Of a stretch of DNA of 64,000 nt, positions 2,192-40,379 are shown one piece after another. Position 1 is the stretch's first letter; every line of letters begins with the position of its first letter. The stretch covers positions 1 to 64,000 of IMG/VR virus record IMGVR_UViG_3300045988_147128; one strand, given 5' to 3'. This DNA is from a virus. The position numbers were made by a program, and so were the translations under genes. A model generated the notes under the pieces. It was given only the letters and a program-made list of their open reading frames with translations, had not been told where the DNA came from and searched no databases.

Positions 2192-2446
2192 ATGACAGAG
2201 AATAGTATAGACGTAAATATCGTACCTGTAAAGAATGGTATGAAACGTGTTGTGGTATCATATTACCATTATTCACGCAAGGAGAAAGATCGCATGAGTT
2301 CTCAAACGGATTACGTGTGGGAAACAGGGAATGAAGAGATGTTTAAATACTTTGAGGCCAGGAGGATAAAAGTATTTTATAGTCAGATTCGTGCCATGTG
2401 TAGATTCTATGGCAAGAAAAATGTACGTAAATACAAAAAGCTATGA
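2192..2446 (+). CDS. hypothetical protein
   Basis: ORF track. Confidence 0.45.
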   Translation: MTENSIDVNIVPVKNGMKRVVVSYYHYSRKEKDRMSSQTDYVWETGNEEMFKYFEARRIKVFYSQIRAMCRFYGKKNVRKYKKL

Positions 2447-3252
2447 TATTAAAAACGACAACCAACGAGTTTTGTTTCATCAGCGTAAGTTTCTATGAAA
2501 CAATAGCGGATCCTCGTCATTTCTTTGAACAGGATTATGAAGAGATGCCAGAATACGAGGAAGAAGCAGATTTTGATTTTGATTCTTATTGCAATAAGTT
2601 TATTCCTTTTGTACAGGAATGGGCGAATAAGGTGGGCGAACGCCTTTACGGATATGGTGTGAATAACATAAAGGTAACATCGGTCGGACATCCGAGTGAA
2701 TATAATTATGATACTGATTGGATGAATGTGGAGGTAGAATTTTGTGATAGATGGAGGCAAAGGATGTTATTTAATATTGGTAAGATTGTCAATGATGATA
2801 AATGCAAGAAGTATGCGGAAGCCAATTATAGGTCAGTATTAGGATACATCTTTTTAGGACCTGAAGATTTAAAGGAATTTGAAAAGGAAATAATAGAAAA
2901 GAAGTCGGATTCGAAATATGATATAACAATATTATTAAATATGTATCTAACTTTGGCTTTTGTAAAAGAATTTGGATTTAAAGCCGGAGAAGCGTGGAGT
3001 GAAATAACAGAATATGCTTACGGATGTTTATCGTATTCCGATTTTGCAACAACAGAGATGCTTATACCGGAAGGTTCGGAGCATTTATTCAAAGACATTT
3101 ACACGGCAAAGGCCGACGAATTATATCATCATGTCCTGGATAAATTCGGATGGGCGTGGCGTGATCCGAAATATAAATCAGAAACAGAATTATGCTCGAT
3201 GTTAAAATGGGCAAAAGAAAAAGGCTTGACCATTGAAGAGTTAAGTATTTAA
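2443..3252 (+). CDS. hypothetical protein (269 aa)
   Basis: long ORF, start overlaps upstream stop (ATGA). Confidence 0.6.
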   Translation: MILKTTTNEFCFISVSFYETIADPRHFFEQDYEEMPEYEEEADFDFDSYCNKFIPFVQEWANKVGERLYGYGVNNIKVTSVGHPSEYNYDTDWMNVEVEFCDRWRQRMLFNIGKIVNDDKCKKYAEANYRSVLGYIFLGPEDLKEFEKEIIEKKSDSKYDITILLNMYLTLAFVKEFGFKAGEAWSEITEYAYGCLSYSDFATTEMLIPEGSEHLFKDIYTAKADELYHHVLDKFGWAWRDPKYKSETELCSMLKWAKEKGLTIEELSI

Positions 3253-3265
3253 TTGTTAAACATAA

Positions 3266-3297
3266 GGCAGTAGTGGTGCGTGAGTATAGGTGCTGCC
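3266..3297 (+). terminator. hairpin GGCAG/CTGCC, loop contains GCGTGAGTATAGG
   Basis: seen directly; conserved loop motif; overlaps GTG start of track ORF 3280. Confidence 0.5.
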
Positions 3298-3315
3298 GTT
3301 AAAATATTTTATAAG

Positions 3316-3564
3316 ATGAAAAAAGAAGAGATTCAAACTATTTTATACACAATCAAAGAAGGAGACAGTATTAAAATCAAAGTACAAGACAAAAGTGAAG
3401 AGATAAGATTGCGGGATCATGTAAGAAGAACGCAGAAATACGGATACAGGTTTTGTTTGTCTCATTTGCATGATGGAATTTTCTATTTGGAGAAGTTGGA
3501 AGAGGGAGATAAAGATAAATACTATAGAGTAATAAACAGAGGAAATGGAAAGACCGGAGTATAA
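3316..3564 (+). CDS. hypothetical protein
   Basis: ATG at 3316 downstream of hairpin. Confidence 0.5.
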   Translation: MKKEEIQTILYTIKEGDSIKIKVQDKSEEIRLRDHVRRTQKYGYRFCLSHLHDGIFYLEKLEEGDKDKYYRVINRGNGKTGV

Positions 3565-3838
3565 TAAGCTACGCAAAATGGCTAAGACTACTCCAGGTCT
3601 GATAGTGGACGAGGCGCAAAACATGATGCGTGTATCGCTGTATGATAATGGGGAACTTAAGAAGATCGTAGTAGTAATGAAATGCGATTCTTTTTTACAG
3701 TCAAAAAGTAACATAGAAAAGATAATGTTATTATCATCTTCTATAGAAGATAGAAAAAACAGAGAAAAAAATAAAACAAAATCAGAAAATGAACAGAATA
3801 ACAAAAATAAGAGAAGAAATAGGAGGAAAACAGGTTGA
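3545..3838 (+). CDS. hypothetical Lys/Asn-rich protein
   Basis: ORF track; overlaps neighbours, weak. Confidence 0.35.
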   Translation: MERPEYNKLRKMAKTTPGLIVDEAQNMMRVSLYDNGELKKIVVVMKCDSFLQSKSNIEKIMLLSSSIEDRKNREKNKTKSENEQNNKNKRRNRRKTG

Positions 3839-4172
3839 TTTGACCTTCTATGGGCGTTTTTGCAGCCTTATCGAAGGTGATAGAAAGATAATACTAAAGG
3901 CAATAAAAAACGGCCGTAAGAAAGGCGTAATCGGAGCCATTCAGCCCGGAAGACATGATAGAATTTGGACCACATGGGCTATTGCTTTTGAGGATCTGAA
4001 GGTAGGGGATACGGTAGAGTTTAGTACATCCGGGAAATACAATCCAGGTTTTCATTCTACAGAAAAGTATGTAGGATGTGTAGAATGGATAAAAGGATCG
4101 GAATGTGCGATAAAAACCGGCAAAGGGATGGCAGTAGTATTAATTAAACACGTGGAAAGGGTAGTAAGATGA
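3789..4172 (+). CDS. hypothetical protein
   Basis: ORF track. Confidence 0.5.
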   Translation: MNRITKIREEIGGKQVDLTFYGRFCSLIEGDRKIILKAIKNGRKKGVIGAIQPGRHDRIWTTWAIAFEDLKVGDTVEFSTSGKYNPGFHSTEKYVGCVEWIKGSECAIKTGKGMAVVLIKHVERVVR

Positions 4173-4450
4173 AATTGAGAGAATTTGTAGAACTCTTTGA
4201 TAAGAATGATGTAAAGGATTTGTTTAAGTCATTATCTTTATGTATGGAATACGTAAGGATAGATTTACATGTATTTAATGTAGGTGCTTATGTTACGTGC
4301 CTGTACAGTAATGATCTTGAACAGCTTTCAACGATGAAAGGGTGCGCTATATACGCGATAGTAGAAGTACCATGTTTATTTGAGGCATTTATGGAATATG
4401 CTTCACCGGAATTGAAAGCATATTATGATAAACTAACGAAAGAAGTGTGA
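4169..4450 (+). CDS. hypothetical protein
   Basis: ORF track; ATGA overlap. Confidence 0.5.
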   Translation: MKLREFVELFDKNDVKDLFKSLSLCMEYVRIDLHVFNVGAYVTCLYSNDLEQLSTMKGCAIYAIVEVPCLFEAFMEYASPELKAYYDKLTKEV

Positions 4451-4451
4451 C

Positions 4452-4934
4452 ATGAAAGAGGAAGTAGAACGGATAAAGAAGTTGGTAGGCATAGATCATA
4501 ATAGATGGGAGCAACCTTGTACATGTGATAAATGCAAGAACATGTGTAAGGTTCCTTGTATTGGTACGCCAAAAGACATAGAGGCTATCATAGATGCCGG
4601 ATACGCTGATAGGTTAAAAGAAACAATGTGGATGGTAGGGTATCTTGCAGTGAAGGAAAAACCAATAGCGATGATCCAGCCGACAGAGAAAGACGGGTGG
4701 TGCGCATTCCGCCGGCCAGACGGTCTCTGCGAGCTGCATGACCGTGGACTAAAGCCGACCGAAGGAGTTCTGGCTTCCTGTAAGATGATTGAAGAAGACA
4801 ATGTTCCAACATACGAAACGTCTGTACTTAGAGCAGTGGCTAATGAGTGGGTTAAGGTGGAGAACTTTGGAGATATAATGAGGGTCGTTTTTAAATTTTT
4901 GCATGAAAATGAACGTAGAAAACAAATTAGATAA
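4452..4934 (+). CDS. Cys-rich hypothetical protein (CTCDKCKNMCKVPC)
   Basis: ORF track; Cys cluster. Confidence 0.55.
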   Translation: MKEEVERIKKLVGIDHNRWEQPCTCDKCKNMCKVPCIGTPKDIEAIIDAGYADRLKETMWMVGYLAVKEKPIAMIQPTEKDGWCAFRRPDGLCELHDRGLKPTEGVLASCKMIEEDNVPTYETSVLRAVANEWVKVENFGDIMRVVFKFLHENERRKQIR

Positions 4935-5313
4935 AGTAGTTAAGATCCTAAAAGAAAAAGGATTTGTGGTATATAGAAAGGGCGGAAAGGAGCCGGGTGT
5001 ATTTTACGCCAAAGAAGGTGACAGCCGGATAGGATTCGTTTATCCCAACAACGGATATATATATGATAGAATAAAAATGTGGTCTTTTTCAAGGATATAT
5101 AAACCACATAAGAAAACCGGGTCTTCGTGTTTAATGAGCGTCAGCGACGAATTTACGATAGAGAATGCGATTAAGAACATAGAGGATAGACTGTGGGTAA
5201 ATTATGTAAAAGACGGTAACAGAAAACGACCAGAAGAATACAATAATATAAGAGAATTTGTTGGTAGCTTCACTAAATTCTACAACTCTGTAGAATTAGT
5301 TGAGGTTAAGTAG
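4903..5313 (+). CDS. hypothetical protein
   Basis: ORF track. Confidence 0.55.
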   Translation: MKMNVENKLDKVVKILKEKGFVVYRKGGKEPGVFYAKEGDSRIGFVYPNNGYIYDRIKMWSFSRIYKPHKKTGSSCLMSVSDEFTIENAIKNIEDRLWVNYVKDGNRKRPEEYNNIREFVGSFTKFYNSVELVEVK

Positions 5314-5334
5314 TTTTCCATGTAAGTTAGTTAC

Positions 5335-5370
5335 CGGCACTGGTCTGTGAAGATAGGTGTCGTTTTTTTT
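5335..5370 (+). terminator. hairpin CGGCAC/GTGTCG (one G-U), loop TGGTCTGTGAAGATAG, then T8
   Basis: seen directly; conserved loop motif. Confidence 0.55.
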
Positions 5371-5387
5371 AAGAAAGGAGGATAAAG

Positions 5388-5639
5388 ATGGAGAAAAGAG
5401 ACAAGGAAATGCCTTACGAGGTAATCATACAGGAGAGAAACAAAGTGGATTTATACGGTAACGTAGTATATTATATATATTGGTTTGATAAATATGGGAA
5501 CGATATTACAAACGAATGGAAATTCTGGAGCAAGGATCCGAAAAAGAAATATGATAGAGTCAATCGCTATTTAACGGATAGTTGGCTAAAGGAATACTGT
5601 AAGAACAACAATTTAAAAATAAGTAGAATAAAGGAATGA
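5388..5639 (+). CDS. hypothetical protein
   Basis: strong SD AAAGGAGG. Confidence 0.6.
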   Translation: MEKRDKEMPYEVIIQERNKVDLYGNVVYYIYWFDKYGNDITNEWKFWSKDPKKKYDRVNRYLTDSWLKEYCKNNNLKISRIKE

Positions 5640-5726
5640 AGCCGGGAAAGCATGCTATGATAACAAACGAGTATGGTGTCTTGGATATTATAAAAGAAAA
5701 ATTTGACAACATAAATATAATGGAAT

Positions 5727-5978
5727 ATGGATCTAAATAAATTGTATAAAGAAATAGAAGAAGCGGAGGTCAATCTGAATGCAAAAAGATTAAAGTACAT
5801 CAAAGAAGCATTAACGGAGAACGGTGGAAGCGTAAAGCTAAAATTTAAAGAGTTTAAAGAATGGCAAGAAGCTAATAGCGTGTTTGACTTTGATGATCAG
5901 TTTCCAGTGATAATAGAAATTGATGGAAATTCTATGTATTTAACGGAAGTGTATGTCAAAAAAACGATTTTCGTGTAG
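5727..5978 (+). CDS. hypothetical protein
   Basis: ORF track. Confidence 0.5.
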   Translation: MDLNKLYKEIEEAEVNLNAKRLKYIKEALTENGGSVKLKFKEFKEWQEANSVFDFDDQFPVIIEIDGNSMYLTEVYVKKTIFV

Positions 5979-6080
5979 TCATGCTGGATTATACTGATAT
6001 GACTTTTTATGATTATAGCAATCCAGGGGAAAATGAACAGGTTGCTTATTTTATTAACTATTGCTTAAATCAAGACAAAG

Positions 6081-6452: not shown

Positions 6453-7193
6453 ATGGAAAATCCAATTATTGTTCCGTTTGATTTAAATACGGCGAGAAAA
6501 ATTAAAAGCGGAGAAATAGAAGGTTCGGTATTAATAAACAATATTGAAATAGAATTTGCATATGAGTCGAAAGACTGTGCAGATTCTTATAATTTACTTT
6601 TTGTAAAAAAAGATGGACGTGGAATAAGTGCTGTATATGCTAACACAGAAGGTTGCACTCTTGGTAACTCCACTCTGGAATTGAAAGTGGAGGCTGGAGC
6701 ATATTTTAAGAAAGGAGATGTATTAACAAGCACTAAAGGATGTCAATTTATATATGATGGACTTATTACCAAAGGAGTAATGGGAAGTATATGTGGAATG
6801 GCAACATCTGGAGATATTGAGTTTGATAATAACAAATTATGGACTGATGTGTATAGCGAAGATGAAAATCGGAGTGTAAGAAAGGCTGAAAAAGAAGAGA
6901 AGAAATTTTTAGCAGAAAAGATTATAAAAGCCGAAGACAGCAGAAAAATAAATATAATAAAACAATATTTAAGCGAATATAAGTATCTATTAGATAAGAT
7001 GCCAAAACATGACTTCAAACCATTTGAACGAGTATTGGTAAGAAGAACTAACCAAGAGAGGTGGAAATTGCATTTATTCTCCAGAGGATTAGGAACATAT
7101 GAAGAATATGAATGTTTGGGAGGCGTAACATTTAGTCAGTGTATCCCATACGAAGGAAACGAACATCTTTTAGGAACTAATAAAAACAAATAA
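6453..7193 (+). CDS. hypothetical protein, paralogue A (N-term IVPFDLNTARKIKSGE)
   Basis: ATG 6453; N-terminal motif shared with next gene. Confidence 0.6.
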   Translation: MENPIIVPFDLNTARKIKSGEIEGSVLINNIEIEFAYESKDCADSYNLLFVKKDGRGISAVYANTEGCTLGNSTLELKVEAGAYFKKGDVLTSTKGCQFIYDGLITKGVMGSICGMATSGDIEFDNNKLWTDVYSEDENRSVRKAEKEEKKFLAEKIIKAEDSRKINIIKQYLSEYKYLLDKMPKHDFKPFERVLVRRTNQERWKLHLFSRGLGTYEEYECLGGVTFSQCIPYEGNEHLLGTNKNK

Positions 7194-24385: not shown

Positions 24386-24943
24386 ATGGAAAAGATGGAT
24401 GATAATACTAAAAATATCCTTTATCCAAAAGGATCTATTTTTCGCATATTGAAAGATGATATAATCAGTGCAGAATTTAAAATAGCCAAAGGAGCTATAG
24501 CGGAGGCAGTATCAGACATAGAAGTAAATGATAAATATGCTGAGGTTTGTTGTAATGGGGAGACGTTCGTCATAGAAACGGATATTATGGATATTATTCT
24601 TTCCAAAGACCCCGTAGAAAATAAATCGGTGAAGAATGACATCATAGACGACAAACTACGATGGGATTTGCTTCCAATGGAAGAGATTGAGGACATTGTA
24701 AGAGTCTATCATGCTGGTGCAAAGAAGTACGGACCCAATAAATGGCAGAACCTTGACAACGGGTTTGAACGGTATCGTGCTGCGGCTGCCAGACACCTAA
24801 TGGAATACATGAAAGGGGAAAGAGTGGATTCCGATACAGGATGTTTTCATCTTGCACAATGTGCATGGAACTGTATAGCTATGCTGTGGTATGACAAGCA
24901 TGGAAAAGGGTTGATACCATTAAACAAGGAGGAAAAGAAATGA
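24386..24943 (+). CDS. hypothetical protein (conserved W...LP...GAKKYG...W...RH block)
   Basis: ORF track. Confidence 0.5.
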   Translation: MEKMDDNTKNILYPKGSIFRILKDDIISAEFKIAKGAIAEAVSDIEVNDKYAEVCCNGETFVIETDIMDIILSKDPVENKSVKNDIIDDKLRWDLLPMEEIEDIVRVYHAGAKKYGPNKWQNLDNGFERYRAAAARHLMEYMKGERVDSDTGCFHLAQCAWNCIAMLWYDKHGKGLIPLNKEEKK

Positions 24944-25251
24944 CAATAGAACAACTAAATTATTTATTAAGAAAAGAGCTTTATGCTATAAAAAACCATA
25001 AAGACAATATTGATAGAATCAAAAAAGAATACTTTGATTCCAATTATGGGTTAAAAGAAGGAGATAAGATCCGTATTTTACACGAAGCAGGAGATGAAAT
25101 GATAGGCTTCTTGAAAAAAGTTGAAGTATGTGAAGACGGAGATCTGTACTTGACAATCCAAAAACAAAACGAAAAAGGTGACAGAGGCAGAGGGATATGG
25201 AATATGTATCTATCATCAAAATTAATTAAAATAGAAAAATTATCAGATTAA
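24940..25251 (+). CDS. hypothetical protein
   Basis: SD AAGGAGG. Confidence 0.5.
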   Translation: MTIEQLNYLLRKELYAIKNHKDNIDRIKKEYFDSNYGLKEGDKIRILHEAGDEMIGFLKKVEVCEDGDLYLTIQKQNEKGDRGRGIWNMYLSSKLIKIEKLSD

Positions 25252-25258
25252 TAACGAT

Positions 25259-25801
25259 ATGATTAGAGCAAGATTTTACATTAAAAAATCCGACTGCGGT
25301 AACGACTACCGTCCAGTCAAATGGCCTATAAAATATCCATATTGGTGTAGTGGTGAATCCGATGATTCATTCATACTTGTAGCGTATGCCGAAGACGAAG
25401 ACAGCATAAAAGAGCTGTGGCCGGAAGCATACGATATTAATGTCTTAGAAAAAGATACTGAGGTTAAATTCACATTAAGATTTCCTAAGCCTAAATGGTA
25501 TGAATTGCAAGAAGAGAGATCAGAAGAGTATGATAAATTATATGGTAAATTCGTATGGGTTACAGACATGTGTCTAAAAGATGGGAAAATAAGAAAGGTA
25601 AAAGCCAGAATAGAAGATTGTGGTGGTCTTTTATTAGCTGACACTCCTGGTCGTTACACCCCTTATCAGATAGGGGATTGTGCTTTTGAAAGCAAGGAAG
25701 AGGCTTTAAAACATGCAGAGGAACAGAGAACGAATTTAATTAAGTCTCTTAGGTTACAAATACATGAACTTGAAAATCTAAAATTCGAATGCGATGATTG
25801 A
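25259..25801 (+). CDS. hypothetical protein
   Basis: ORF track. Confidence 0.5.
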   Translation: MIRARFYIKKSDCGNDYRPVKWPIKYPYWCSGESDDSFILVAYAEDEDSIKELWPEAYDINVLEKDTEVKFTLRFPKPKWYELQEERSEEYDKLYGKFVWVTDMCLKDGKIRKVKARIEDCGGLLLADTPGRYTPYQIGDCAFESKEEALKHAEEQRTNLIKSLRLQIHELENLKFECDD

Positions 25802-25854
25802 ATAATTTGATTATTTTACAAATAACGATTACATTTACGATATAAATCATTCAA

Positions 25855-27045
25855 ATGAGATTAGTTGAAAGGCATATAGTTAAAGACAACCGGTTTGAGG
25901 ATATTTGCTTCAAATCCGGCTTGTTATATAATTATGTTCTTTACAACATTCGTCAAGGAATCTTTTCAGGTAACTATTTAAAGGAATTTGATTTATCAAA
26001 CAAACTTTGCAAAGAAAACCAATTCGATTTCAGGAATTTACCTAATCATGTATCCCAACAGGTGATTAAACAGGTATTTAAAAACATAAAATCCTGGATA
26101 AAACTCAAGAAGGATTTTGAAAAGAATCCTTCTAAATACGGAAATCATAGACCTCACCTTCCGTCATACAAACAAGGTAAGAAACAAAACATGGTTGTTT
26201 CCACCAACTGCAATTGTAGGGTAAAGGGTGATAATTGTATTTATTTTGTTAAAGATATAATCAAACCTATCAAAACAAATGTAAAGAAAGACGAACTAAA
26301 ACAAGTTAGAATAATCCCTCAAGCTACATGTTATGTAGTAGAGGTAGTTTATGAAAGAAAGGAAACTGATCTTGGTTTAAACAAAGACAATTTTCTTTCG
26401 ATTGATTTAGGATTGAATAATTTATGTTCATGTATTAGTAATGTAGAAACTAATTCTTTCATTATAAACGGACGGGTTATGAAATCAGTAAATCAGTGGT
26501 ACAATAAGAAGAAAGCTAAGTTGATGTCTTTTGTTGGTAATAAGGGAACTTCAAATAGAATAAGAAAAATTACTTTGTTTAGAAATTGTTGGATAGAAGA
26601 CAAATTGCATAAAATCAGTAGATACATTGTAGACTTTTGTAAATCTAACAATATAGGAACAATCATCATTGGATTAAACAAAGAATGGAAAAACGAGATA
26701 AATATCGGTAAAAGGAATAACCAACATTTTGTTTCTATTCCTCATTCTAAATTGATTGATAAGATTGTTTACAAAGCAAATCTTTTAGGGATAGAGGTAA
26801 TTACTCATGAGGAATCTTACACATCAAAGATTGACCATCTTGCTTTTGAATCTCTAAAGAAACAAGAATCCTATTTAGGGAAAAGAAAGAAACGTGGATT
26901 ATTCCAAAGTTCCGTTGGAAAGCTAATTAATGCTGATATTAATGGAGCTATAGGAATAGCAAGAAAAGTAGTCGGTGATTCTTTCATTGGAAAGATAATC
27001 GATAGTGGATTTGTGTTTAATCCGGTTAGAATAAATATTTTGTGA
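25855..27045 (+). CDS. tnpB: IS200/IS605-family TnpB-like RuvC nuclease (solo, no tnpA); zinc-finger cysteines absent
   Basis: RuvC-I SIDLGLNN, RuvC-II region EESYTSKID, RuvC-III INADINGAIGIARK; no CxxC pairs between them. Confidence 0.75.
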   Translation: MRLVERHIVKDNRFEDICFKSGLLYNYVLYNIRQGIFSGNYLKEFDLSNKLCKENQFDFRNLPNHVSQQVIKQVFKNIKSWIKLKKDFEKNPSKYGNHRPHLPSYKQGKKQNMVVSTNCNCRVKGDNCIYFVKDIIKPIKTNVKKDELKQVRIIPQATCYVVEVVYERKETDLGLNKDNFLSIDLGLNNLCSCISNVETNSFIINGRVMKSVNQWYNKKKAKLMSFVGNKGTSNRIRKITLFRNCWIEDKLHKISRYIVDFCKSNNIGTIIIGLNKEWKNEINIGKRNNQHFVSIPHSKLIDKIVYKANLLGIEVITHEESYTSKIDHLAFESLKKQESYLGKRKKRGLFQSSVGKLINADINGAIGIARKVVGDSFIGKIIDSGFVFNPVRINIL

Positions 27046-27052
27046 TATAAGG

Positions 27053-27799
27053 TTGAATCTAATGAATAAAATGAATAATTTTAATAACATTAACTACGCA
27101 GCAAAAGCCAGAAGAGCTTATTTAATAAACAATTTCGATAAGATTCTTAACAGCCTCAACACGCTTCATTCAACGGTTGAGACCATGACGTTGTTCGTAA
27201 ATGACCAGGCTTATAATTACATTCTTAAGCTAAAGGAAGTAATTAAAACCAGTCCTATGTATAAGCACAATATCAAGCGTCTTTTAAATGATATGGACAA
27301 AGAGATAAAGAGGTACAATGCTTCTATCTACTACATAAATAAAGAGCGTAGTGAGGTTATAGCTGATATAACACAAGCGATGGAAGATTGCCTCATGCCA
27401 TACATAGACGATCTGGCCGGCGCTATAAGGGCAGCCGTGTGGTCGAGGGGTGTGTCCGAGGAGCGGACGGAAGCGGCGGTCCTGGCCCTTATCGTGTCTT
27501 CCTTGGCTCTGACATCCGGAAGACTTATTTCAGGTGGATATCAGATTATGAAAGAAATGGGTGGAGGTCAAGGAGGTAACCCGTTTACGTTTATGAGCAT
27601 TGATAAGATAAGATACTTATCTACATTATTATCTGATGCTATTACCAGTGGAGAGATTACTCTTGAAGAAAAAGAAGCCGATGAAATAACTAAGGCGATG
27701 GATGTTTTTATTGAGAAGATGTCCGATTCAGATATTGTTGACAAAGTAATTAGCATACTCGAAGAAGCAGAATCTAAAAATAAGGAGGAACGATCATGA
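27053..27799 (+). CDS. hypothetical protein
   Basis: ORF track. Confidence 0.55.
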   Translation: MNLMNKMNNFNNINYAAKARRAYLINNFDKILNSLNTLHSTVETMTLFVNDQAYNYILKLKEVIKTSPMYKHNIKRLLNDMDKEIKRYNASIYYINKERSEVIADITQAMEDCLMPYIDDLAGAIRAAVWSRGVSEERTEAAVLALIVSSLALTSGRLISGGYQIMKEMGGGQGGNPFTFMSIDKIRYLSTLLSDAITSGEITLEEKEADEITKAMDVFIEKMSDSDIVDKVISILEEAESKNKEERS

Positions 27800-37929: not shown

Positions 37930-38460
37930 CTAAAGCGAATGGGATTCTTGGATACAAACGCAAGAAACCCCGATATTGCTATCGCTGGAATTACTCTTAC
38001 TCTCCAATTCGGAAATGCCCTTCCGAAGTATATTACGGGCTGCAAGAATATCACGGTCGTTAATCGCTCCGCACGCTGGGCATACCCACGTGCGGTCGCG
38101 TAACGACAGACCTTTATTAATGCAGCCACATTCACAAGTTTTGGAAGAAGGATACCATTTGTCAATCTTGTGTACAGTTACTCCATATTTTGAAGCAACA
38201 TACGTAAGTTTGTTAATAAAAGAAGAATGACTGAGATCAGAAACTTTCTTTCCCCACAAACGTTTCATTCCTTCAATGTTTAGATCTTCAATAAAAATAT
38301 AATCATACTGTTTGCATAACTGGTGTGCTAATCCCCATTGAAAATCTGATCGAAGATTGTTTATTTTACGATACGTTTGTTGAAGTTCAAACAGTCTCCT
38401 TCTTCTATTGTTGGATCCTTTCTTTGTATTAGAAAACCGTTTGTTTAGTTTTCGAAACAC
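37930..38460 (-). pseudogene. tnpB: TnpB C-terminal fragment (RuvC-II IFIEDLNI, zinc finger CECGC...CPACG, RuvC-III NDRDILAARNI); N-terminal half with RuvC-I absent
   Basis: classic TnpB C-terminal motifs; no upstream in-frame extension. Confidence 0.7.
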
Positions 38461-38619: not shown

Positions 38620-39357
38620 ATGACGAACGAAGAATTTATCAAGAACGTCTCCCTTGAGGGAGAGGAATGGAGAGATGTAGTCGGATTTGAGGGACTTTAT
38701 ATGGTATCCTCCTTTGGGAGAGTAATTTCCCTTGGAAGAAAAATAGTCAACAACCTTGGCGTTAGAATTACAGATCCATTTATTAAAAAGACCAACAACA
38801 TAACCAATTCTGGCTATATTCAAATTCGATTATGGAAAAATAATAAATGCAATCATCTATATGCACACAGATTAGTGGCGACAGCTTTCATCCCAAACCC
38901 CAATAATTATCCATGTATAGATCATATAGATACGATTAAAACAAATAATCATTACCTTAATCTAAGATGGTGCACTAATTCTATGAATCACCTCAACCCT
39001 ATTACAAGAAAAAGAAATTCTTTATCAAAAATAGGTGCTAGAGGGATAATAGAAAATAAAAGCAAACCAGTTGTTAGGATAGATCCCCAAAACCCAAATT
39101 GTATAAAAATATATGAATCTCCAATGTTTGCCAAGAAATCAGAGGGATATAACCAAGGTCATATATCTGCTGTTTGTCTTGGCAAAAGGAATCATCATAA
39201 AGGATACGTATGGGTTTATTTATCCGATTACGAACCACATACCAGTATTTCAAAGATCGAATTATCTTATAATAAAAATATTACAGACGATTTTTTGGAA
39301 TCAATAATGCAACATCCTTTACTAAAAGATCTTCTACCTAATAACGCCAACCCTTAG
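38620..39357 (+). CDS. HNH homing endonuclease (NUMOD4 + HNH_3 type)
   Basis: WRDVVGFEGLYMVSSFGRV (NUMOD4); HRLVATAFIPNP...IDHID...NNHYLNLRW (HNH_3). Confidence 0.8.
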   Translation: MTNEEFIKNVSLEGEEWRDVVGFEGLYMVSSFGRVISLGRKIVNNLGVRITDPFIKKTNNITNSGYIQIRLWKNNKCNHLYAHRLVATAFIPNPNNYPCIDHIDTIKTNNHYLNLRWCTNSMNHLNPITRKRNSLSKIGARGIIENKSKPVVRIDPQNPNCIKIYESPMFAKKSEGYNQGHISAVCLGKRNHHKGYVWVYLSDYEPHTSISKIELSYNKNITDDFLESIMQHPLLKDLLPNNANP

Positions 39358-40379
39358 ATTGCGGCATTATTGTTGCAGCAACCGTTGTTGCATCCGCAAC
39401 TGTTGTTGCAACATCCTCCATTATACCCATTAAATCCATAAGGATATCCGCCATAGCCGTTTCCAGCAAATGGATTACATGTTAAAAATGCAGGCACCGG
39501 GCAAGGACGAATCTGGTTAACGATGTTTTGAGTTTGAGCTTGCTGAGCGGCAAACAGCTCCAATGTCTGTTTTTGCTCACGCAACGAATCAATCGTATGC
39601 TGCATTTCCCTCTTCTCAAGATCACAGAAAGCATTCTGAATTTGCTGAGATTGAGCATCGATTTTAGCGCTCAAGATATTGAACTGCGTAGTAGCTTGTT
39701 CACGATTGTTAGCCAGACCTTGGTTGAGACCGTTCTGCAAGATATTGGTTTGTTCCAACGTGCGAAGCTGGTTATCAAAACCTTGCTGAGTAATCATTCC
39801 CTGAGTCTGGCAAGTGCTTTGATTGATCAACGAACTCAGATTGCAGCAGCAAGAGCTGATTTGATTTCCGATTTCACAACCTTGTTGTTGAACTGCATTA
39901 ATAACAGCCTGAGAAGTCATACCTACCTGACCGGCTACTTTATCAATAGCACCTTGTACGTTGCAGATAGCGTTCTGAAGTTGAGTAGTAGAACAGTTCA
40001 ATGCAGAAGCGATCTGATCTATGGCGCTACGATTACCCTGAATTGCCTGCATCAGAAGCTCACGACCATAATCGTTATTCAACTGAGCGGGTAAACCATT
40101 GGCGCAACAATCACCACCATTTCCAAAACCGTTACCGAAGCCACGTCCACCCCACAGCCAGAACAAGACAATTATCCAGAGCCACCAACCGTTAGCCCCA
40201 CCGAAACCGTCCTGGTTATTACGACCGTTCATTAAAGCCGCTACCAGATTCGGATCCATTTTATTACCACCTATCAAATTAGCAAACATGCCGGGAATCA
40301 TTGAAAGAAGACCGTTAGCGGCTGCACCACCACCGTTAGCCCCAGCTCCATCTAAAAGGACGATTTTATCACCACCCAT
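39354..40379 (-). CDS. Gly/Gln/Asn/Cys-rich low-complexity protein with one Trp-rich TM segment; locally GC-richer
   Basis: GNGFGNGG, NGCCNNN repeats; WWLWIIVLFWLW hydrophobic stretch. Confidence 0.5.
   Translation of the reverse strand: MGGDKIVLLDGAGANGGGAAANGLLSMIPGMFANLIGGNKMDPNLVAALMNGRNNQDGFGGANGWWLWIIVLFWLWGGRGFGNGFGNGGDCCANGLPAQLNNDYGRELLMQAIQGNRSAIDQIASALNCSTTQLQNAICNVQGAIDKVAGQVGMTSQAVINAVQQQGCEIGNQISSCCCNLSSLINQSTCQTQGMITQQGFDNQLRTLEQTNILQNGLNQGLANNREQATTQFNILSAKIDAQSQQIQNAFCDLEKREMQHTIDSLREQKQTLELFAAQQAQTQNIVNQIRPCPVPAFLTCNPFAGNGYGGYPYGFNGYNGGCCNNSCGCNNGCCNNNAAI

Follow-up and report, generated by a model that had tools for sequence, protein, structure and literature searches.

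The closest described relatives of the element analyzed here are the insertion sequences of the IS607 family, such as Helicobacter pylori IS607 and ISXfa1 (Yoon et al. 2023, PMC10711439). They combine a gene for TnpA, a serine recombinase with an HTH domain, with an overlapping tnpB and a right-end RNA, and a dinucleotide crossover leaves a short nucleotide overlap at their junctions, where the bases are G-G. In the IS200/IS605 type, which has another kind of transposase, ISDra2 TnpB acts with an omega-RNA that takes in the 3′ end of tnpB and continues into the right flank; its proposed role is to cut the empty site, after which the element is restored or copied by recombination (Karvelis 2021; Meers 2023; review PMC13565253). 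The same review raises "non-restorative homing" in phages as a theoretical possibility only. T4-like phages have genes for free-standing homing endonucleases (Seg and Mob).

TnpB proteins have also diversified at their active sites. In the "RIIr" TnpBs (Altae-Tran et al. 2023, PMC10691335) and in the "Ealt / D-Phi-G" clade (Yoon et al. 2023), the canonical RuvC-II Glu is replaced by Gly and an alternative Glu is present, an arrangement that forms a described class and is held by these authors to be active. The zinc finger has been lost in some large TnpB branches, and the only finger-less clade named in the main text of that survey is RIIIr-4, in which Asp is changed to His (Altae-Tran et al. 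2023, PMC10691335). IS607 TnpB homologs of eukaryotes and giant viruses are known as Fanzor2.

Here we describe a locus of a gut crAss-like phage, contained in a 64-kb stretch of viral DNA (hereafter, the window), in which positions 25799–27090 very probably constitute an IS607-family insertion sequence that has lost tnpA and is no longer autonomous; its cargo would be a TnpB with an alternative Glu and without a zinc finger, together with its own guide RNA.

Results

A finger-less TnpB with a rearranged RuvC-II site

The initial annotation had noticed a solo TnpB-like gene encoding 396 amino acids, and profile searches agreed: the product of the ORF at 25855–27045 (+ strand) matched NCBIfam guided_TnpB (9e-46, 156.9 bits; cutoff 100) and also Pfam OrfB_IS605, Pfam Cas12f1-like_TNB, and phrog_506. 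The NCBIfam IS607_TnpB model gave no match to this protein, and its clade therefore differs from the seed of that model. The AlphaFold2 model was confident and compact (pLDDT 92). Its best PDB folds in Foldseek were AsCas12f, ISFba1 TnpB, ISDra2 TnpB, and Fanzor2 (9b0l); the Cas12f and TnpB structures, with E values of 1e-17 to 1e-9, were nearer than Fanzor2. By sequence and fold homology, with a WED-REC-RuvC architecture, the protein is a TnpB.

The RuvC-I and RuvC-III motifs had been correctly recognized, their aspartates D184 (SIDLG) and D361 (NADIN) each being conserved in 132/132 cluster representatives. By contrast, what had been called a clear RuvC-II region proved to be a rearranged site. 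The position of the canonical Glu, which we placed by profile alignment to AsCas12f, by strand position in the AlphaFold2 model, and by column conservation, is occupied by Gly273 in all 132 representatives, whereas a conserved acidic residue, E320 (EESYTS; 131/132), lies six residues ahead of the first former zinc-finger Cys position, here Ile326. A BLASTP alignment with the other TnpB fragment of the window was too weak to place the canonical Glu. Thus, of the D/E/D residues that were to be checked, the two aspartates are conserved and the canonical Glu is absent; the triad would be completed by the essentially invariant Glu320, for which a catalytic role is suggested by this conservation.

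The absence of a zinc finger was confirmed. Residues 320–361 contain no Cys, and a check for an overlooked finger found none; in the same region a C4 finger was seen in 0/131 representatives (0–2 Cys there) and in no phage copy examined. The fragment at 37930–38460 (− strand) does contain the finger cysteines (…TCECGC…VCPACG…), as had been described; it comes from another TnpB, of which it represents the C-terminal half. Across copies of tnpB, dN/dS was 0.05–0.15, which shows strong purifying selection on the protein.

The Glu-to-Gly change with an alternative Glu, as well as D-L-G in RuvC-I and NADxN in RuvC-III, likens the window protein to the RIIr and Ealt clades, from which its clade differs in that the zinc finger is missing as well. 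RIIIr-4 was considered and rejected, since the RuvC-III motif here is NADIN and retains the Asp that is His in that clade. Fanzor and pro-Fanzor were rejected too, since the alternative Glu alone is common to both and RuvC-I reads S-I-D-L-G, not D-P-G. The alternative Glu position, the association with IS607, and viral residence are shared with Fanzor2, but the window protein has D-L-G, no zinc finger, and the phage of a bacterium as its host.

Empty sites and a sharp right edge delimit the element

No IS ends had been recognized at this locus, and a comparison with relatives lacking the gene had been proposed. This comparison revealed exact empty sites, which delimited an insertion of about 1292 bp. 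Related phages read …GCGATGAT|TAAC… at the uninterrupted site (L001, L111, L139, and L098), with flank identities of up to 98% in csAssE-Sib, L111, L139, and L098, and the insertion point is an 8-bp overlap between two phage genes. On the right, every locus loses conservation after …TTTTAATAAC(A/G)T, a sharp edge seen over about 25 insertion sites. Both ends of the element (25799–27090, + strand, 1292 bp) were thereby fixed within 3 nt, the remaining ambiguity arising because ATT recurs at both junctions.

The left end (25799–25854, + strand) consists of 56 nt fused directly to the ATG of tnpB and is homologous, by alignment, to the end that precedes tnpA in a transposase-bearing relative, the complete IS607-type copy L064. 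Directly 5′ of it, the flank GATGAT (25793–25798, + strand) contains the ancestral ATG of the downstream gene and ends in K-A-T, a candidate TAM or crossover motif. All left flanks that could be placed, via an empty site or left-end alignment, end in GAT or TAT (KAT; about 15 sites). Clean empty sites are known for seven sites, one of which was first predicted from the junction and then matched in 57 contigs. The empty site predicted for L079 on the assumption of a zero-length left end, in which the AT of the flank and the G of the element would form the tnpB ATG, had no exact match among viral contigs.

The junctions are compatible with crossover at a matching dinucleotide but are not uniform. 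Left ends are variable, being truncated or almost missing in several lineages, and the overlaps range from 1 to 10 nt across sites: AT at one site (site G), ATT in the window, T only in the subfamily ending in AAC-GT, and up to 10 nt at L023. One site lost 12 nt of target. Not every copy, therefore, resembles a clean TnpA product.

The element rebuilds the codons that it interrupts

The upstream phage gene (25259–25801, + strand; 180 amino acids) stops in the empty sites at a TAA within ATGATTAA, its overlap with the next gene. In the window it stops at TGA (25799–25801), composed of one ambiguous flank/element base and two element bases. The downstream phage gene (27053–27799, + strand) has its ancestral ATG at 25794–25796, on the opposite side of the insertion, and the N-terminus of its product in the empty sites is MINYAAKA. 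Its first 9–12 codons, counted from TTG at 27053, ATG at 27062, or ATG at 27071 up to 27090, now come from the right end of the element and continue in the reading frame of the ancestral second codon (ATT/AAC…). The element thus restores the stop codon of the upstream gene with its left end and in-frame start codons of the downstream gene with its right end. The report of a next gene starting 8 nt after the tnpB stop was close as regards the first in-frame TTG (a 7-nt gap), but this start is not the ancestral one, and the N-terminal extension that it opens is element-encoded; the tnpB stop nearly abuts the next gene because the right end supplies the in-frame starts of that gene. The annotation of this phage protein is corrected accordingly, its apparent N-terminus being transposon-encoded.

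The same arrangement recurs elsewhere. At 17/26 right flanks, the last two nucleotides of the right end and the first flank nucleotide form the start codon of an ORF of 60–800 amino acids ([AG]TG in 15, ATT in two), compared with 2/26 and 0/26 for the other two frames. Empty sites corresponding to four loci (L078, L033, L064, and L071) show a native ATG that is split as AT|G.

A predicted guide RNA ends at the element boundary

It had been proposed that, if the nuclease is active, its omega-RNA must occupy the final part of the ORF and extend into the start of the downstream gene. Covariation, covariance-model matches, and a drop in synonymous diversity all point to such a scaffold at 26959–27090 (+ strand). 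The covariation-supported structure spans 26972–27063, with predicted helices 26972–26976/26998–27002, 26980–26985/26990–26995, 27006–27011/27019–27024, 27025–27030/27058–27063, and 27036–27039/27044–27047, and it is followed by a conserved A/U-rich tail (27064–27090, + strand). As predicted, the RNA takes in the final 28 tnpB codons along with the stop codon, some 85 nt, extends 45 nt beyond, and ends exactly at the element boundary.

When 37 distinct 3′ ends were aligned with MAFFT, 97% of the cells were paired, as against 31–50% when the partners were slid, and double changes occurred in 12 pairs (74 cells), a level matched by only 0–1 of 500 shuffles. A covariance model placed this RNA at the tnpB 3′ end in relatives with 49% and 42% protein identity (64.6 and 52.8 bits), which include the IS607 of an H. 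pylori phage; once distant relatives were added, compensatory changes were present in 21/27 pairs. Synonymous diversity was 0.19 in the last 25 codons, in comparison with 0.35–0.44 over most of the ORF. Candidate helices further upstream (26901–26957) were dropped, as they showed one-sided changes only and lie where synonymous diversity is high. An Rfam scan of 25500–27500 at E ≤ 1 returned no family.

From its position and the IS607 literature, the guide is predicted to be TAACTACGCAGCAAAAGCCA (27091–27110, + strand), corresponding to codons 2–8 of the downstream gene. The guide length is taken from other TnpBs, and its first base might, as in ISXfa1, still be part of the scaffold. Expression and processing of this RNA, like its TAM, we infer from these sequence features.

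A relative retains an IS607 transposase

In agreement with the initial annotation, there is no tnpA inside the element, and tblastn detected no serine-recombinase homolog in the 64-kb window. L064, however, encodes a 194-amino-acid TnpA with HTH_17 and Resolvase domains, which matches the NCBIfam equivalog transpos_IS607 at 167.7 bits (cutoff 110); the tnpA stop codon overlaps the tnpB ATG. The left end of the window element aligns with the region upstream of this tnpA, including the KAT|RRT junction. A remnant of tnpA is also kept in L002. The transposase of L064 and the homology of the left ends mark the window copy as a tnpA-deleted, non-autonomous derivative within the IS607 family. A resolvase–tnpB pair of a Helicobacter phage encodes a TnpB that is 42% identical and likewise lacks the zinc finger.

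The family is polymorphic among epsilon crAss-like phages

Members of the family are inserted at about 25 sites in epsilon crAss-like phages. Our sample of 80 viral loci comprised 26 distinct right flanks, and some contigs carried two copies. Homologs total ~7,800, thousands of them on contigs of ~150 kb, and prevalence in one phage lineage is high. A genome-collection scan with the single protein gave three loci only, one of them on a "Vibrio olivae" contig that resembles phage DNA. Two relatives with 49–50% identity (P0122 and P0126) have a solo tnpB amid small unannotated ORFs.

Presence and absence at the same site were found between near-identical flanks. Copies at different sites differ by dS of at least 0.36, so that transposition to new sites has not been recent. 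Among 18 genomes with the element at the window site, mean identity of the element was 98.6%, compared with 90.3% in the left 500 nt and with 94.6, 91.4, and 88.1% at growing distance on the right. This gap is the signature that homing would leave, but part of it may stem from selection acting on the element or from mosaic recombination of its flanks.

Discussion

The IS607 transposon family is a known kind, and the window copy is an ordinary transposase-less member of it, ~1.3 kb long and resident in a gut crAss-like phage. It resembles described IS607 elements in its homologous TnpB (42% identity to the Helicobacter-phage copy, which has the same finger-less C-terminus), in the HTH and serine-recombinase TnpA overlapping tnpB in its close relative, in the right-end RNA found by the covariance model, and in short nucleotide overlaps at the junctions, which, though not uniform, are compatible with the dinucleotide crossover of that family (PMC10711439). 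It differs in that the window copy lacks tnpA, that the junction bases are A-T (also G-T at the right end) rather than G-G, and that the lineage resides in phage genomes, typically at a phage gene's start codon, which the right end rebuilds. By analogy with IS607, a TnpA like that of L064 would have mobilized the window copy in trans, with a double-stranded circle as intermediate and an A-T dinucleotide as the crossover site, which would explain why the left flanks are all KAT and the right end is AAC(A/G)T. The unequal junction dinucleotides of the AAC-GT subfamily, AT on the left and GT on the right, are not predicted by a strict serine-recombinase crossover and count against this mechanism.

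An alternative view is that the element is instead a solo-TnpB element of the IS200/IS605 group (IS1341 type), moved by a Y1 (HUH) TnpA through single-stranded peel-and-paste 3′ of a fixed motif. A solo tnpB with asymmetric ends, insertion directly 3′ of a short conserved KAT without regular target duplication, and the Pfam domain name OrfB_IS605 would all suit such an element. We consider it quite improbable, because the sole transposase observed beside the tnpB of relatives is the IS607 serine recombinase of L064, as likewise in Helicobacter phages, and because the junction overlaps, though not uniform, are compatible with a dinucleotide shared in the manner of IS607 (PMC10711439). Furthermore, the subterminal hairpins expected of IS200/IS605 were not found: neither window end forms a stable single-stranded hairpin (folding z = −0.1 and +0.4).

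Conservation of the nuclease bears on two further readings. A decaying relic, that is, an immobile and catalytically dead TnpB left by an old insertion, would fit the absence of a transposase from the window, the loss of the canonical RuvC-II Glu and of all zinc ligands, and the age of copies at different sites; it is nevertheless highly improbable in the face of the low dN/dS, the near invariance of D184, E320, and D361 along with invariant Gly273 in more than 130 representatives, the compact fold, the compensatory changes that maintain the RNA structure, and the membership of the Gly/alternative-Glu arrangement in a class considered active. The same purifying selection, together with the high prevalence in one phage lineage, might instead mean that TnpB has been domesticated, as had been suggested, and now serves the phage itself rather than being selfish; it could then be a regulator, for instance, or a weapon aimed at rival phages. 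A carrier phage would also gain from cutting element-free competitors. Domestication is very unlikely, however, for a gene that is polymorphic between near-identical flanks, occupies about 25 sites with at most two copies per genome, and is found in only some members of one genus according to the crAssE-Sib paper. Moreover, one relative retains the transposase, the guide is merely the adjacent flank, and the catalytic residues are kept, unlike in TldR-type repressors.

How, then, might an IS607-derived element persist after losing its transposase? TnpB with its RNA (scaffold 26959–27090, guide from about 27091) would cut phage genomes that carry the uninterrupted site, the target being KAT followed by the first codons of the gene, that is, the KAT-flanked TAACTACGCAGCAAAAGCC. 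During co-infection, recombination with an element-bearing genome would then copy the element in, a form of homing that would bias its inheritance. An element that lands on AT|G in start codons and has AT or GT at its end would be able to insert into tightly packed phage genomes with the downstream gene spared. We offer, tentatively and as a possibility that we would not yet favor, that this lineage may have become a phage-adapted and largely transposase-independent homing drive, which splits start codons between T and G or lands directly behind them, rebuilds the start codon and leader with its invariant A/U-rich right end (AT/GT), cuts uninterrupted alleles in co-infecting crAss-like phages, and so spreads in a super-Mendelian manner. 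If so, the left ends would be truncated and variable because the left end and TnpA had become dispensable.

The element resembles ISDra2 TnpB in its fold, in a predicted guide RNA that extends from the 3′ end of tnpB into the right flank, and in the proposed cutting of the empty site, but differs in its transposase type, in the missing zinc finger and alternative Glu, and in that homing would run between co-infecting phage genomes. Like Seg and Mob, it places a nuclease gene between conserved genes of a phage, is present in some genomes and absent from others, and is better conserved than its flanks, whose identity decays with distance on one side. Unlike these endonucleases, it would recognize its target by an RNA guide and not by protein, and it has transposon ends and a transposase-bearing relative.

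Genes of this kind were previously read as "transposases" and taken as a hint of a temperate lifestyle in epsilon crAss-like phages (PMC11054128). Our analysis corrects this annotation: they are instead remnants of selfish insertion sequences. The locus provides a well-delimited natural TnpB/guide-RNA element in an abundant human-gut phage lineage, with many independent sites and matching empty alleles, so that homing by TnpB between co-infecting phages, the TAM, and the activity of a compact 396-amino-acid nuclease that lacks the zinc finger and has an alternative Glu are now directly testable.

The tnpB gene lies in an element inserted between two phage genes

The ORF at 25855..27045 (plus strand, 396 aa) is a real gene and its product is a TnpB. 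The protein matches NCBIfam guided_TnpB (E 9e-46, 156.9 bits; cutoff 100), and also Pfam OrfB_IS605, Cas12f1-like_TNB and PHROG 506. The best solved-structure matches to its AlphaFold2 model, built with 56 relatives as input (mean pLDDT 92, pTM 0.88), were AsCas12f, ISFba1 TnpB, ISDra2 TnpB and Fanzor2. Comparison with copies at other sites gave a dN/dS of 0.05–0.15, indicating that the protein is under selection.

The window phage is epsilon crAss-like and related to csAssE-Sib (OR575929), in which the homologues of window genes 25259–25801 and 27053–27799 share an 8-bp overlap (ATGATTAA) with no insert. Closer relatives carry the exact empty site, such as locus L111, whose flanks are 98% identical to those of the window and read …TTCGAATGCGATGAT on the left of the junction and TAACTATGCAGC… on the right. 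Comparison with empty sites delimits an inserted element of 1292 bp (25799–27090), with a boundary ambiguity of 3 nt because ATT is present at both junctions. The element's first bases complete the TGA stop of the upstream gene (25799–25801), while the downstream gene's original ATG persists to the left of the insert, at 25794–25796. The right end (…ATGAATAAAATGAATAATTTTAATAACAT) supplies in-frame ATGs and a TTG at 27053 that read into the ancestral second codon of the downstream gene, which explains why the initial annotation saw a gene starting 8 nt after the tnpB stop; the TTG is there, but this apparent start is encoded by the element. Nor are recognisable IS ends lacking, as had been supposed, since both are defined by the empty sites and the sharp limit of right-end conservation.

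Between homologues of 24940–25251 and 25259–25801, csAssE-Sib has a 1128-bp DNA cytosine-5 methyltransferase gene (4914–6041 of its locus, L001) that the window lacks entirely (25251–25259). A different TnpB, of canonical type, is represented at 37930–38460 (minus strand) by its C-terminal half (176 aa), which carries FIEDL and DRD motifs as well as Cys-rich finger motifs. The sequence breaks off some 160 nt short of a free-standing HNH/NUMOD4 homing-endonuclease gene (38620–39357, plus strand), whose insertion may have truncated it; a 341-aa ORF beyond that gene (39354–40379, minus strand) has no family match.

The element recurs at start codons

With the window TnpB as query, a protein search yielded 7,818 homologues (E <= 1e-10), the top-scoring ones on contigs of ~150 kb, and 80 IMG/VR loci with TnpB at 69–100% identity were compared. 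All fetched loci are conserved up to …TTTTAATAAC(A/G)T and diverge sharply thereafter, into 26 distinct right flanks; some contigs carry two copies. For seven sites, clean empty alleles turned up among the fetched loci and in the window (between 41688 and 41687, minus strand), and one empty site predicted from the junction was matched verbatim in 57 contigs. One more site has diverged empty alleles only, clearest in the window (between 41659 and 41658). These unoccupied window sites (…TTTTTAGAT followed by TTAAG…, and …GTTTAGAT followed by TAGTG…) lie 29 nt apart on the minus strand in intergenic DNA, and their occupied counterparts hold same-family TnpB copies in loci L018/L061 and L020.

Wherever an empty site or a left-end alignment allowed the left flank to be placed, its 3′ end is GAT or TAT (KAT). 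On the right, an ORF of 60–800 aa starts in 17 of the 26 flanks at the codon formed by the element's last two bases and the first flank base, this fused codon being ATG or GTG in 15; the same test in the other two frames gave 2 and 0. For four such insertions, the empty sites show a native ATG cut between AT and G.

Some junctions are irregular. In L023 a 10-nt sequence (ATTTGTATTA) recurs at both junctions; in L071 the left end is truncated at a CATAAA microhomology with loss of 12 nt of target; in the L033 group merely ~8 nt of left end remain before the tnpB ATG; and in L024 a 36-nt deletion joins the right end to the third codon of the downstream gene. On a 20-kb contig of a 'Vibrio olivae' assembly (NZ_JBHMEP010000019.1) lies a copy at 79% identity whose right-end RNA scores 145 bits; it is probably gut-phage DNA within that assembly and not a Vibrio gene.

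TnpB lacks the zinc finger and has an alternative glutamate

The zinc finger is indeed missing, none having been overlooked. The window TnpB has no Cys from EESYTS (320) to NADING (361), and the same is true of those phage copies (69–100% identity) for which the C-terminus was inspected. Across 131 full-length representatives of 50% clusters, this interval holds 0–2 Cys (often the first only) and never four; a profile alignment to AsCas12f pairs each of the canonical finger's four Cys with a non-Cys residue. Loss of the finger in some large TnpB branches has been published (PMC10691335), so this is known variation.

The RuvC motifs originally noted are conserved at RuvC-I (D184, in SIDLG) and RuvC-III (D361), both invariant among cluster representatives, but RuvC-II is non-canonical. 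In Cas12f/TnpB the catalytic Glu closes a beta-strand (…TIQM-E); the corresponding strand of the window protein closes with Gly273, which is shared by all representatives (132/132) and all phage copies (59/59). Glu277, close by, is variable, and an invariant Glu320 lies six positions ahead of the site of the former first Cys. Replacement of Glu by Gly with a compensating Glu is known from the RIIr clades (PMC10691335), and an alternative-glutamate arrangement from the Ealt/D-Φ-G clade (PMC10711439); the window TnpB has this "alternative glutamate" arrangement. It is not a Fanzor, the D-P-G fingerprint being absent, nor does it belong to RIIIr-4, which the main text of PMC10691335 names as finger-less: in that clade Asp is changed to His, where the window TnpB keeps D361.

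A transposase-bearing relative points to IS607

The window element contains tnpB alone, and tblastn found no serine recombinase in the 64-kb window, in keeping with the first reading of a solo tnpB without tnpA. In locus L064 (TnpB 76% identical), the stop of a 194-aa gene overlaps the tnpB ATG; its product has HTH_17 and Resolvase domains and matches the NCBIfam IS607-transposase equivalog (167.7 bits, cutoff 110). This tnpA is preceded by 60 nt that can be aligned to solo-copy left ends, the window's included, and L002 retains a tnpA fragment. Both tnpA and tnpB begin with ATGAGA, and a deletion between these repeats would yield exactly the solo architecture. In Helicobacter phages a resolvase gene is paired with a tnpB whose product is 42% identical and shares the finger-less C-terminus. 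The L064 contig carries, besides its complete element (2417–4232), another match to the right-end RNA (6949–7081), located 2.7 kb downstream, so two elements flank one phage gene.

Folding revealed no stable ssDNA hairpin at either end of the window element, a result that speaks against an IS200/IS605 Y1 mechanism. The substrate of IS607 TnpA is double-stranded DNA, which it recombines at matching dinucleotides, the dinucleotide belonging to the TAM (PMC10711439). The A-T common to both junctions here fits this model; the fit is less clean in one subfamily, whose right ends carry G-T, and at some left ends with longer overlaps or truncations.

A conserved RNA spans the right end

Thirty-seven distinct 3′ ends, aligned with MAFFT, gave a consensus structure of five helices (26972–27063). 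When scored together with two upstream helices that were subsequently discarded, the structure has 97% of cells paired, against 31–50% with partners slid, and double-sided changes in 12 pairs and 74 cells; 0–1 of 500 shuffles attain such values. The covariance model from this alignment finds one window copy (26959–27091) and matches the equivalent tnpB 3′-end position in relatives at 42–49% protein identity (L086, 64.6 bits; Helicobacter pylori phage IS607, 52.8 bits; four others, 27–32 bits). With five of these distant relatives added (all except L084), compensatory changes occur in 21 of 27 pairs, in a model-fitted alignment that leans toward the structure. Synonymous diversity falls to 0.19 in the last 25 tnpB codons from 0.35–0.44 over most of the ORF. 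Covariation, model matches and this drop bear out the proposal that the scaffold lies at the tnpB 3′ end and runs into the downstream ORF; no Rfam family matches the region. A second dip in synonymous diversity (0.17–0.23) at 26365–26514 (residues ~171–220, around RuvC-I) could mark an internal RNA or promoter element, or a tract of recombination.

If other TnpBs are a guide to this one, its guide segment would begin at ~27091 and comprise the opening codons of the downstream gene. The predicted guide (27091–27109) mismatches the empty alleles of L111 at position 7, of L139 at position 10, and of csAssE-Sib and L098 at positions 4 and 10; the L011 flank matches the csAssE-type allele exactly. 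Such mismatches may have arisen as escape from cutting or be ordinary polymorphisms.

Discussion

Our comparisons establish an insertion with its boundaries, a conserved RNA, a selected protein, multiple sites and a transposase-bearing relative; domestication for a phage function, raised initially, is not supported. We suggest that an IS607 TnpA mobilises the element in trans, that RNA-guided cutting would target uninterrupted alleles at KAT followed by the gene's first codons, and that recombination in mixed infections would then copy the element into the cut allele. Among 18 genomes with the element at the window site, its mean identity is 98.6% (minimum 95.2), against 90.3% in the adjoining 500 nt on the left and 94.6% on the right, then 91.4% and 88.1% farther out. 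This pattern is compatible with homing, and selection and mosaicism could contribute to it.

The kind of element is known: IS607 TnpB with a right-end RNA (PMC10711439), solo TnpB elements, alternative-glutamate and finger-less branches, and TnpB genes of epsilon crAss-like phages have already been reported. What seems new to the literature searched is the behaviour of this lineage, which lands repeatedly on start codons and rebuilds them with its right end, while its left ends decay and the element stays markedly more conserved than its flanks.
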